Source of the DNA: Halomicronema hongdechloris C2206
Lineage (GTDB): Bacteria > Cyanobacteriota > Cyanobacteriia > Phormidesmidales > Phormidesmidaceae
Direction: 5' to 3'
Assembly: GCF_002075285.3 (NCBI RefSeq)
Contig: NZ_CP021983.2
Coordinates: forward strand, 1,830,001-1,862,000
Length of the DNA: 32,000 bases
A program made the position numbers and the translations under genes. Below are positions 25,538 to 27,608 of this stretch, piece by piece (the first letter of the stretch is position 1; each line of letters starts with the position of its first letter). The notes under the pieces are model-generated. The model worked only from the letters and a program-made list of their open reading frames with translations. It was not told where the DNA came from and searched no databases.

Positions 25538-26676
25538 GCCAGCAATTCCTCGTAGAGAGACTTGAGCTTTTGGGCTTCTGTTTCCCAGTTATACGTTGTC
25601 TCGATGGCTCGAAGACCATTCTGCCCCAGGCGTTGGGCCTGATCAGGGTGATTAATCAGGTATTCAATCGCTTCCCGAATGGCAGACACGTCTAACGGAT
25701 CAACGCAGATGCCACAGTCGTTACCCTCGATGATTTCCCGCCAGAGAGGAAAGTCGGAGGCAATCACAGGTAACCCGGCTGACATGTACTCAAACATTTT
25801 GTTGGGTTGAGCATCGATATGATTCGGCAAAGGATGGAAAAGGACTAATCCGGCCTGAGCTCGAGCCAGGGTTTGGGCAACGGCAGGGCGATCAAGTTGT
25901 CCTAACTCTTGTACGTTGGCCCATCCTGGCAAGGAAACAACCCGCTGACGCTGCTGGGAATCAGCAAATTGCCCGGCTAGCAGTAGTTTGACGTCTGTTT
26001 GCCCAATAGCGTCAACCATTTCTTGAATGCCACGGATCTGGGCGATGCCGCCGACGTAACAAACAACTCGCTCTTTCTGAGACCAGTCAAGGCGGGGGGT
26101 GTGTAGTTCGTTAAGGATAGGGTAGTTGTTGATGTTGACTGCATGGCAGCCCAGTGATTCAAAACGGTGGGTAATGTGAGGTGTGGCTGCGACGACTGCG
26201 TCAAAGCGACGAGCAGAGAAGGTTTCTAGACGCTCGACTATCCAGGCGATGGTAGCACGCCAGACTTTTGGGATATAGTGCTTGGAAAGAATTTGACGCG
26301 GAACGTCTTCATGGACATCGTAGATTACGGTTTTGCTCTGCAGCTTCAGGAGCAGACCAATCAGAACGAGTTCAGGGTCATGGAAGTGATGAAGCCTAGA
26401 ATTTGCTTCTAATACTCTACGATAAACTTGAAAGGTCGTGAAAATCATGCGCTGGAGACGATTTCGAGGTATCGAAAGCGCTTCGATACTTATACCGTCG
26501 ATGTTTTCATCCTTAGCATGGCGAACAATAAGAATCACTCGATATCCAAAAGATGTTAGAGATTTACATTCTTTCTGAAAAATCCTAGTATCGAACAGAG
26601 AGTGTACAGAAGTAATTTGTACGACTGATTTCATTAGATACCTATCATCATATTCTCTAAGACAGAAGACCATCAC
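25534..26676 (-). CDS. Glycosyltransferase family 4
   Basis: 380-aa GT-B fold protein (QITSVHSLFDTRIF... N-terminal domain; the C-terminal part has the NKMFEYMSAGLPVIASD E-x7-E-like region). An alternative start is the Met at 26634. The 26676 start overlaps the upstream stop by 4 nt. Confidence 0.8.
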   Translation of the reverse strand: MMVFCLREYDDRYLMKSVVQITSVHSLFDTRIFQKECKSLTSFGYRVILIVRHAKDENIDGISIEALSIPRNRLQRMIFTTFQVYRRVLEANSRLHHFHDPELVLIGLLLKLQSKTVIYDVHEDVPRQILSKHYIPKVWRATIAWIVERLETFSARRFDAVVAATPHITHRFESLGCHAVNINNYPILNELHTPRLDWSQKERVVCYVGGIAQIRGIQEMVDAIGQTDVKLLLAGQFADSQQRQRVVSLPGWANVQELGQLDRPAVAQTLARAQAGLVLFHPLPNHIDAQPNKMFEYMSAGLPVIASDFPLWREIIEGNDCGICVDPLDVSAIREAIEYLINHPDQAQRLGQNGLRAIETTYNWETEAQKLKSLYEELLA

Positions 26677-27608
26677 TTAGATGCTGGTACTTCTAACCTA
26701 TACCTGATTTTGCCCCATAAGGCTCTCACTCTCTTGGGAAGAGATACATAATCATCTAACCACTTATCCGAACATTTCTGAAGTTGAGGCTCATTGAGCT
26801 GCGTCCCAAGATATTGCATCAACGCAATATGGATTTTGTGATAAGAGACAGTAGCGAAGTTTGCCCTGCCTGACGGACTCCTTTGCAGATCATAGGCTGA
26901 CCAAGTAGATAGATCCCAAAGGGACCATTGATTTGACAAAGTATCTATCAGTTCTGAAAAGCCGATTTGAGACTCAATATCCGGCTCAATATTGATAAGA
27001 TCTTTAATCCCTACTAAAGCATACAGGAACCCATTAAGAGTATGAGAAGGGCGTTTAGAAGGATACTCTTCTAAGAAATCCCATTTCCCATCTATTTTGG
27101 AGCGAACTCCATCATTCTCAACAGACAAAGAAAATGGGTAAGTTGCCTGAAAGGCTTTATCTAAATATTCTGCATTTTTAGTTAGCAAGTAAGCACGAAC
27201 CAGCACACTAATGCCTTCCCCCTGCGCCATACAAGAAATCCAAGGAGCTTTTAAGTCGCCCCAGTCAAAGTGATATTTCCAAAGACCGTCTTCAGATTTC
27301 AAAAACCAATCTGCCATGCTCAAGAAGATATCGCGGGAATTTTTGTCTCCATTGCTAAGGTGTCGATTGAAATGGGCTAAGGCAAAAGCTGCAATCCTTG
27401 TGGGGTTATATTGGACTCCAGCAGTTTTATATTCCTTGACAGGAATACCGAGAGAATCTTTAGGATAATAATAAAATTTCTCATTGGAGAGAGTAAAACC
27501 TAGTTCCAGGGGATAACACTTGCTATTCTCAATGCTACTGACCAACTCATATTTTTTACTTCCCCAAAATGCTTCTGATATGTCAATAGAAAGCTTACGT
27601 AAGGTCAT
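26673..27608 (-). CDS. D-glucuronyl C5-epimerase C-terminal-domain family protein
   Basis: 311 aa. [52 protein letters not shown] and [12 protein letters not shown] match, from memory, the animal heparan-sulfate C5-epimerase blocks [51 protein letters not shown] and YHTTHINQLQLL. Confidence 0.8.
   Translation of the reverse strand: [311 protein letters not shown]

Follow-up and report, generated by a model that had tools for sequence, protein, structure and literature searches.

The 32,000-nt window analysed here (positions 1,830,001 to 1,862,000 of contig NZ_CP021983.2 from the cyanobacterium Halomicronema hongdechloris C2206; all positions below are those of the window) carries a glycan-biosynthesis operon in which one gene encodes a 311-aa relative of the animal D-glucuronyl C5-epimerase of heparan sulfate, GLCE. 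Ten minus-strand genes (Table 1) follow one another with junctions of -11, +41, +6, -4, -4, +2, -4, -4 and +6 nt, from the gene for a 532-aa membrane protein to that for an aminotransferase, and their tight spacing leads us to treat them as one operon. Besides the C5-epimerase gene, the set comprises genes for a Wzx flippase, a Wzy-like polymerase, an initiating phosphotransferase and two GT4 glycosyltransferases (GT4a and GT4b) that flank a nucleotide-sugar 2-epimerase. The initial annotation had placed the C5-epimerase gene in a glycan cluster, between a Wzy-like gene and a GT4 gene that overlaps it by 4 nt, and this is borne out: the operon is of the Wzx/Wzy type, the Wzy-like gene ends 6 nt upstream of the epimerase gene, and GT4a and the epimerase stop codon share 4 nt (GTGA), or 1 nt should GT4a in fact begin at the next ATG.

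A GLCE-like protein with a complete catalytic set

The epimerase open reading frame is intact and begins with ATG. Its product matched Pfam PF06662 (C5-epim_C, 'D-glucuronyl C5-epimerase C-terminus') with E=8.1e-45 and 153.1 bits, far above the gathering cut-off of 23.3, and its residues 107-283 cover positions 4-186 of the 188 in the profile; no NCBIfam model matched it. When sequences in the Protein Data Bank (PDB) were searched with phmmer, the protein matched only animal heparan-sulfate epimerases (zebrafish Glce 4PW2, E=1.3e-28; human GLCE 6HZZ, 9.6e-27, and 6I01, ~1e-26), bacterial members of the family being without a solved structure. Residues 94-284 are collinear with GLCE residues ~315-516 or 372-574, and the rest is unaligned. 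An AlphaFold2 model built with 20 homologues (pLDDT 94.2, pTM 0.93) gave the same picture: in Foldseek its only strong fold matches in the PDB were the GLCE structures 4PXQ, 6I01 and 6HZZ (E ~5e-13; root-mean-square deviation 2.1-2.3 A over ~210 columns, 32-34% identity, query TM-score 0.6), followed by generic alpha/alpha barrels at E>2e-3. The relationship to animal GLCE is far beyond chance.

The key catalytic residues of the human enzyme, E499, Y500, N510, Y560 and Y578 (PMC13308652, citing Debarnot 2019), correspond by the phmmer chain offsets to E181, Y182, N192, Y239 and Y256 of the window protein, so that all five are present. Aligned with 20 homologues (40-85% identity), the protein shows no variation at E181, N192, Y239 or Y256; at the position of Y182, 17 of them have Tyr, two Phe and one His. 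Given the profile match and the complete set of GLCE catalytic residues, the window protein is in all likelihood catalytically active, removing the C5 proton from a uronic acid. The homology to the GLCE catalytic domain read by the initial annotation from collinear sequence blocks is hence upheld by profile, sequence and fold, and the two checks that it had proposed for this point, a profile search and an inspection of the catalytic residues, both came out in its favour.

Neither a signal peptide nor a transmembrane segment was found in the protein (maximum 19-residue hydropathy 1.14), which must therefore be confined to the cytoplasm and act before flipping by Wzx. Polymer-level action, as envisaged initially, is for the same reason unlikely if it means action on a finished polymer outside the cytoplasm. 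The window protein thus shares with animal GLCE the alpha-helical PF06662 catalytic domain and the five catalytic residues, and presumably also its mechanism, removal and re-addition of the C5 proton. It differs in architecture, since GLCE (617 aa) carries beta-hairpin and beta-barrel domains at its N-terminus, is anchored in the membrane and resides in the Golgi lumen, whereas the 311-aa protein is cytoplasmic and has neither these domains nor an anchor. Of the traits of EC 5.1.3.17 as strictly defined, it lacks the multi-domain architecture and the anchor or secretion signal and, in its context, a pathway to a substrate with D-glucuronic acid (GlcA) of the N-sulfated heparosan type.

Table 1. 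Genes of the glycan operon and of the remaining window, and the phage relative discussed in the text
Feature	Position	Strand	Basis
Membrane protein, 532 aa as called (TTG start), first in the visible operon	30354..31952	(-)	hydropathy
Wzx/MOP-family flippase	29012..30364	(-)	PF13440 E=9e-16, NF007773
Wzy-like repeat-unit polymerase, ~8 transmembrane segments	27615..28970	(-)	hydropathy, weak TIGR04370, synteny
Predicted uronic-acid C5-epimerase (C5-epim_C, GLCE-like), 311 aa, single domain, no export signal	26673..27608	(-)	Pfam, PDB, fold model
GT4 glycosyltransferase (GT4a), translationally coupled to the epimerase	25534..26676	(-)	Pfam Glycos_transf_1, Glyco_trans_4_4; synteny
WbpI/WlbD-type UDP-2,3-diacetamido-2,3-dideoxy-D-glucuronic acid 2-epimerase (to UDP-ManNAc3NAcA)	24425..25537	(-)	PDB comparison, specificity residues
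GT4 glycosyltransferase (GT4b), WcaI-like	23172..24422	(-)	Pfam, NCBIfam; synteny
Small PglC-type polyprenyl-phosphate sugar-phosphate transferase, initiating enzyme	22516..23175	(-)	PF02397 Bac_transf E=7.6e-67
PglD/NeuD-family amino-sugar N-acetyltransferase	21887..22519	(-)	TIGR03570 224 bits (cut-off 160.8), PglD_N
DegT/PglE/LegC-type sugar aminotransferase	20729..21880	(-)	PF01041 E=2.4e-99, TIGR04181 394 bits
NNH2-NACHT-HEAT STAND NTPase	16278-18935
PIN-domain protein	15627-16040
Nucleotidyltransferase	13274-13681
DUF3782/PD-(D/E)XK protein	9721-10374
Uma2-family nuclease genes (three)	8554-9138, 10461-11147, 11780-12343
Phage C5-epim_C protein, 548 aa	L084:5653-7299 (vB_Pae_BR161a, MK511013.1, 30830-32476)		Pfam E=4e-35

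The neighbouring 2-epimerase and a clade-specific cassette

The Epimerase_2 gene between GT4a and GT4b passes the generic TIGR00236 'wecB' model. Among PDB sequences, however, its product scored highest with the UDP-GlcNAc3NAcA (UDP-2,3-diacetamido-2,3-dideoxy-D-glucuronic acid) 2-epimerase of Thermus thermophilus (8SXV; 372 bits, E=2.3e-110, 53% identity), compared with 161 bits for CapG, 157 for Escherichia coli WecB (1F6D) and 133 for the Bacillus subtilis enzyme; bacterial UDP-GlcNAc 2-epimerases as a whole scored 133-167 bits. The UDP-GlcNAc3NAcA 2-epimerase activity of the Thermus enzyme has been demonstrated, and relative to UDP-GlcNAc 2-epimerases it has Trp307 for the conserved Arg that binds the 3-OH, Ala18 in place of Leu/Met and Tyr96 in place of His/Gln, with Lys17 close to the C6 carboxylate (PMC10622841). 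At its specificity positions the window enzyme has K15, A16, Y100, D102 and W310, of which A16, Y100 and W310 are the equivalents of Ala18, Tyr96 and Trp307. The Thermus-type residues recur in 12 of 13 orthologues from the gene cassette described below, the exception having Val at the Ala position. Judged from these comparisons, the neighbour is a WbpI-type enzyme and not a canonical WecB, so that the window encodes the last step in the synthesis of UDP-ManNAc3NAcA, the D-manno counterpart, and the neighbour points to the uronic acid in play.

The 'WecB' gene was also considered as part of a WecB/WecC pathway from ManNAcA to L-GulNAcA or of an FnlC-type pathway to L-FucNAc or L-GalNAcA, but both ideas were dropped because the PDB comparison and the specificity residues point to the WbpI type. 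The second-best structural relative of the window enzyme was the archaeal 2-epimerase 4NEQ (287 bits), presumably from Methanocaldococcus jannaschii. Methanocaldococcus species are also listed with C5-epim_C proteins of 298-308 aa (Table 2 of PMC3068255), and the pairing of such an epimerase with a WbpI-like enzyme may extend to methanogen glycan pathways.

A genome scan with the alignment of homologues returned 80 loci, the 23 closest at 37-59% identity. Among these 23 the order Wzy-epimerase-GT4a-WbpI-GT4b, which may continue with an initiating transferase (PGT), PglD and an aminotransferase, recurs in Armatimonadota, Symploca (Cyanobacteria), Longimicrobiales, Thermaceae, Oceanithermus, Bacteroidota, Verrucomicrobiota and Chloroflexota, and also in Vibrio anguillarum, V. 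ordalii, Endozoicomonas and Oceanobacillus (Bacillota). We counted neighbours in 21 close-clade loci, namely those with informative flanks, three further contigs (L081-L083) and the window itself, and in 45 distant-family loci of comparable length (28-40% identity). A WbpI-type gene lies beside the epimerase gene in 16 of the 21 and in 2 of the 45. All close-clade loci of more than 10 kb contain an orthologue of GT4a (31-71% identical, at least 37% in all but one), and none of the distant ones has a GT4a-like gene. The pairing is thus a feature of this clade and not of PF06662 at large.

Where the flanks of close-clade loci extend far enough, WbpA-like genes are present (Pfam-annotated contigs and seed tblastn), and genes of the WbpA/B/D/E type adjoin the cassette in L081, L002 and L018. 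In L081, the closest relative (85% identity; cyanobacterial, judging from adjacent FBPase-Tal-G6PD-OpcA genes), genes for a UDP-sugar 6-dehydrogenase, a GFO/IDH/MocA oxidoreductase and a Hexapep acetyltransferase stand directly before Wzx-Wzy-epimerase-GT4-Epimerase_2-GT4, which is followed by a short-chain dehydrogenase/reductase (SDR) and a Glycos_transf_4 initiating transferase, with a WbpM/PglF-like dehydratase nearby. In L002, from Symploca, a nucleotide-sugar dehydrogenase, a UDP-GlcNAc 3-dehydrogenase-like protein, an acetyltransferase and a DegT aminotransferase (WbpA/B/D/E-like) are encoded upstream. A Ugd-type gene, with its GGSC motif, was found neither in the window nor in any of the 21 close-clade loci, and the WbpA/B/E/D/I pathway for UDP-ManNAc3NAcA is the sole uronic-acid pathway that travels with the clade. 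In the 32-kb window itself no UDP-sugar 6-dehydrogenase was found by Pfam, NCBIfam or tblastn, as the initial annotation had stated; its corollary that the donor is made elsewhere would hold for the WbpA, B, D and E steps but not for the last donor-forming enzyme, which the WbpI-type gene supplies within the window.

The cluster for the O5 antigen of Pseudomonas aeruginosa runs wbpA-B-C-D-E, wzy, wzx, hisH, hisF, wbpG, wbpH, wbpI, wbpJ, wbpK, wbpL, wbpM, and to our knowledge has no C5-epimerase gene. We take the layout of the relatives to be this order with a C5-epimerase added, and the position of GT4b to be that of WbpJ. Both the O5 (wbp) and the Bordetella (wlb) clusters share with the window a WbpI-type gene between two GT4 genes in a Wzx/Wzy setting. 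Further O5-like features among the window's relatives are WbpA/B/D(E), the SDR and WbpL-like and WbpM-like genes and, in the Vibrio loci, a HisH, HisF2/WbuZ, WbuX set (acetamidino formation) that immediately precedes the epimerase. The window differs from O5 in having PglC/PglD/PglE-type initiation genes instead of WbpL/WbpK, and no WbpA/B/D/E within its 32 kb.

By stereochemical rule L-gulo is the C5 epimer of D-manno, the conversion of M to G in alginate being the textbook case. V. anguillarum and V. ordalii, which carry the cassette (L013, L014), offer a link to known chemistry, as the 2,3-diacetamido-hexuronic acid of their O:2 capsular and O-chain polysaccharides was revised to gulo upon re-examination (PMC3210612). 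The genes wbpE, wbpI and wlbA are unique to serotype O2, and sugars of the diNAcBac (di-N-acetylbacillosamine), GlcNAc3NA-amide and ManNAc3NAcA types agree with earlier nuclear magnetic resonance work (PMC10059132). The word 'epimerase' is absent from the main text of that study, and the C5-epimerase gene of the O2 cluster therefore went unremarked. The genes for an AsnB-like amidotransferase, a formyltransferase and PGT-PglD-DegT-PglF in L013 and L082 fit the O2 sugar chemistry.

Proposed reaction and its alternatives

We propose, with somewhat better than an even chance of being right, that the protein is a soluble cytoplasmic epimerase of the GLCE fold that converts D-ManNAc3NAcA, or a close derivative, to L-GulNAc3NAcA, probably on a lipid-linked repeat unit. 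The WbpI-type enzyme would make UDP-ManNAc3NAcA from UDP-GlcNAc3NAcA, the WbpA/B/E/D steps being encoded outside the window, and the PglC-type transferase would load undecaprenyl phosphate with a first sugar that the trio of PglC-, PglD- and PglE-type genes predicts to be diNAcBac-like. Once a GT4 enzyme had added ManNAc3NAcA, the epimerase would take H-5, alpha to the carboxylate, from the lipid-linked intermediate by means of its Glu/Tyr set, with re-protonation from the opposite face. The coupled GT4a would then lengthen the chain, and may drive the reversible epimerisation forward, before the unit is flipped by Wzx and polymerised by Wzy. We place the reaction at the lipid-linked stage because the protein is cytoplasmic, its invariant partner is a glycosyltransferase and characterised enzymes act in chains; every one of this kind works on an in-chain residue and needs flanking sugars (PMC13308652). 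Whereas animal GLCE acts on GlcA in N-sulfated heparosan, the substrate that we infer here is thus ManNAc3NAcA on a lipid-linked unit, and an L-gulo product would follow from its C5 epimerisation.

Several points weigh against this assignment. We know of no enzyme of the PF06662 family shown to act on ManNAc3NAcA, and the Vibrio comparison assumes that the sequenced strains DSM 21597 and ATCC 33509 are of the O2 type and that the gulo sugar of the O:2 polysaccharides is the L form. The 6-dehydrogenase WbpA, the 3-dehydrogenase WbpB, the aminotransferase WbpE, the acetyltransferase WbpD and a PglF-like dehydratase were all missing from the 32-kb window in tblastn searches, so that the donor pathway is presumed to be encoded past base 32000 or at another place in the genome. 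Within the close clade, five loci (L007, L019 and L021-L023; Psychrobacillus, Bacillus and uncultured bacteria) have no WbpI-type gene within 10 kb and show the order epimerase-GT4a-GT4b without it. L019 additionally has an ATP-grasp gene, an octopine-dehydrogenase-like gene and a gene for a DUF7033 protein, a domain also present in the Vibrio loci; inspection of L019 and L021 for an alternative uronic-acid pathway found none, and we regard these two loci as uninformative, not contradictory. Finally, RED65_08024 of Bermanella marisrubri, the only characterised bacterial member, belongs to the same Pfam family but is 448 aa long, and GlcA derived from heparin served as its substrate in the assay (Raedts 2013, cited in PMC13308652); it acts on GlcA in heparin-like chains (PMC13308652). 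E. coli O112ab and Shigella boydii 15 have L-iduronic acid (IdoA) in their O-antigens and 323-aa homologues in the corresponding clusters (PMC3068255). The family is therefore not uniformly manno-specific.

These last cases, together with the family name and the homology to GLCE, also speak for what the initial annotation had put first, a D-glucuronyl C5-epimerase turning GlcA into L-IdoA within a finished or growing polysaccharide: RED65 does so on O-desulfated heparin (PMC13308652), and IdoA and homologues coincide in E. coli O112ab and S. boydii 15 (PMC3068255). We nevertheless judge GlcA to be an improbable substrate here, as the window and the close-clade loci have no Ugd-type dehydrogenase and the clade travels with WbpA/B/E/D/I instead, no heparosan/GlcA synthase or sulfotransferase was found in the window by Pfam or NCBIfam, the partner conserved beside it is of the WbpI type, its residues leaving room for a 3-acetamido group, and the protein has no export signals. 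The broader wording of the initial annotation, an 'otherwise C5-epimerised uronic acid', does hold. A second possibility is that epimerisation precedes glycosyl transfer, UDP-D-ManNAc3NAcA being converted to UDP-L-GulNAc3NAcA. The N-terminal beta domains of animal GLCE help form its long polymer-binding cleft, and a small, soluble, cytoplasmic protein that lacks them, encoded close to a UDP-sugar 2-epimerase, would suit such a role; the invariant partner, however, is a glycosyltransferase and not the 2-epimerase, and the O2 serogroup of P. aeruginosa includes variants with alpha-L-gulo in place of the beta-D-manno of others, which is what epimerisation after transfer would give. Since, moreover, all characterised enzymes of the GLCE fold act in-chain and need flanking sugars (PMC13308652), we consider the nucleotide level unlikely.

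The same chemistry on another 2-acetamido uronic acid, either D-ManNAcA, giving L-GulNAcA, should WbpB/E/D be missing from the genome, or D-GlcNAc3NAcA, giving the L-ido form, seems to us slightly less likely again. It would accord with the window having no visible WbpB, E or D, with the several WbpI-less loci of the clade and with the occurrence of L-GulNAcA-type sugars in marine bacteria (PMC3210612), but not with the Trp and Ala that give the window 2-epimerase room for a 3-N-acetyl group, nor with the closest relatives, L081 and L002, which encode WbpA/B/D(E) beside the cassette. The full GLCE catalytic set, the cytoplasmic location and the fixed place of the gene between polymerase and glycosyltransferase in biosynthetic operons of many phyla make it very improbable that the protein is no epimerase at all but a lyase-like or non-catalytic alpha/alpha-barrel protein, for example a chain-trimming enzyme. 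What hints in that direction are low-scoring fold matches to unsaturated glucuronyl hydrolases and to a polysaccharide lyase (E ~3e-3 to 6e-3), a phage homologue whose gene adjoins one for a tailspike lyase, and the C5 proton abstraction that epimerases and lyases have in common.

In its net reaction the proposed conversion to L-GulNAc3NAcA has a parallel in AlgG and AlgE, which also act on a manno uronate (beta-D-ManA to alpha-L-GulA) after the glycosidic bond has formed. These are right-handed beta-helix proteins (CASH/NosD-type), periplasmic or secreted, with a long homopolymer as substrate, whereas the window protein is an alpha/alpha barrel with no signal peptide and no AlgG/AlgE-type sequence or fold similarity in Pfam or Foldseek; it may work like them without being one of them. 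A precedent at the oligosaccharide level is Agl32 of Halobacterium salinarum, which acts on a uronic acid in a short glycan and requires flanking sugars but is AGE-superfamily-like and lacks the GLCE catalytic residues that the window protein has (PMC13308652).

As for the family itself, prokaryotes were screened for pfam06662 in 2011, and the candidates, among them forms of 305-312 aa such as the 308-aa protein of V. cholerae VL426, lay in conserved neighbourhoods rich in sugar-modifying genes; paralogues of differing specificity were suggested, and every candidate was read as a D-glucuronyl epimerase and taken to predict IdoA (Raedts et al., 2011, PMC3068255). The single-domain forms in that catalogue resemble the window protein and the V. 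cholerae neighbourhood matches the window cassette, but no link was made to ManNAc3NAcA, GulNAc3NAcA or WbpI. In our profile search PF06662 matched 5,454 clusters (at 50% identity) with E<=1e-3 and 1,357 with E<=1e-30; the rarity in bacteria asserted by the initial annotation hence applies to characterised enzymes and not to genes. Our literature search found no earlier link between the family and ManNAc3NAcA or GulNAc3NAcA and, in the searchable literature, no enzyme assigned to L-GulNAc3NAcA formation. The gene thus belongs to a known family, and as far as we found the putative substrate, the lipid-linked stage and the cassette are undescribed.

Phage and plasmid relatives, and other genes of the window

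A tblastn search of phage genomes revealed a 548-aa C5-epim_C protein, annotated as hypothetical and 100% identical in 15 records, in the P. aeruginosa temperate phages vB_Pae_CF/BR (MK511001-MK511016). It keeps the Glu, the Asn and two Tyr, that is, four of the five GLCE residues, with Met at the position of Y182, and has a C-terminal extension of ~260 aa; PHROGs has no model for it. The gene lies 174 bp after that for a tailspike essentially the same as PDB 4RU5 ('tailspike gp27', related to gp49, 4RU4) and precedes antirepressor, lysis and recombinase genes, a location typical of lysogenic-conversion genes. Serotypes of the P. aeruginosa O2 serogroup have identical O-antigen clusters. The phage gene is a candidate for a lysogenic-conversion epimerase behind their mannuronic/guluronic difference, and would be an independent tie between PF06662 and ManNAc3NAcA-type antigens; alternatively, its product is a virion-associated enzyme. 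The wider proposition, that the clade is the long-missing family making L-GulNAc3NAcA from lipid-linked D-ManNAc3NAcA and the phage member perhaps the conversion factor for the O2 serogroup, we advance tentatively, as possible but on balance doubtful. Members at 26-31% identity also occur on plasmids (NZ_CP151784.1; NZ_CP140269.1, Priestia megaterium; NZ_CP086382.1, Deinococcus radiophilus; NZ_CP038146.1, Streptomyces sp.) and on Bradyrhizobium phage OP596613.1, and the family is therefore mobile.

L-GulNAc3NAcA occurs in surface antigens of fish and human pathogens (V. anguillarum, V. ordalii O:2 and the P. aeruginosa O2 serogroup), and our proposal offers a plausible assignment of an orphan step in rare-sugar biosynthesis, together with a concrete candidate, and a relative of it in phages, to account for a P. 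aeruginosa serotype difference so far without explanation. Were it true, thousands of genes that now bear the name 'D-glucuronyl C5-epimerase family protein' would have been given the wrong substrate, O-antigen and capsule structures could be better predicted from genomes, and the GLCE fold would prove able to handle lipid-linked uronic acids with heavy N-acylation, a property of use in glyco-engineering; were it wrong, the window protein would simply join the other uncharacterised proteins of a family that has been known from prokaryotes since 2011.

Among the other operon genes, the Wzy-like gene matched TIGR04370 weakly (27.8 bits, under the cut-off); it is 56-57% identical to the gene at the same position in L002, and the gene in this slot of L081 carries PF04932 (Wzy_C). 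The 532-aa protein has about six N-terminal transmembrane segments and a soluble C-terminal portion of ~190 aa according to hydropathy, with no Pfam or NCBIfam match and no BLAST counterpart in loci L001-L080. Across the genes for Wzy, Wzx and the 532-aa protein (27000-31000) the GC content is 0.35-0.39, as against 0.45-0.65 elsewhere in the window, the usual signature of the horizontally exchanged, serotype-specific core of a glycan cluster.

The rest of the window (NACHT STAND NTPase, PIN, nucleotidyltransferase, Uma2 and acetyl-CoA-synthetase/Pat-like genes) is unrelated to the glycan operon. Two minus-strand open reading frames, one with ATP-grasp_5 and GNAT domains (5443-6726) and the other with CoA_binding and Succ_CoA_lig domains (7473-8219), look like the halves of one Pat-type/ADP-forming acetyl-CoA-synthetase-like gene; they are separated by ~750 bp of high-GC DNA, and a frameshift, an inserted sequence or a gene that is truly in two parts could each explain this. 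From 8554 to 18935 extends a cluster of genes of the defence/selfish-element type (Table 1).

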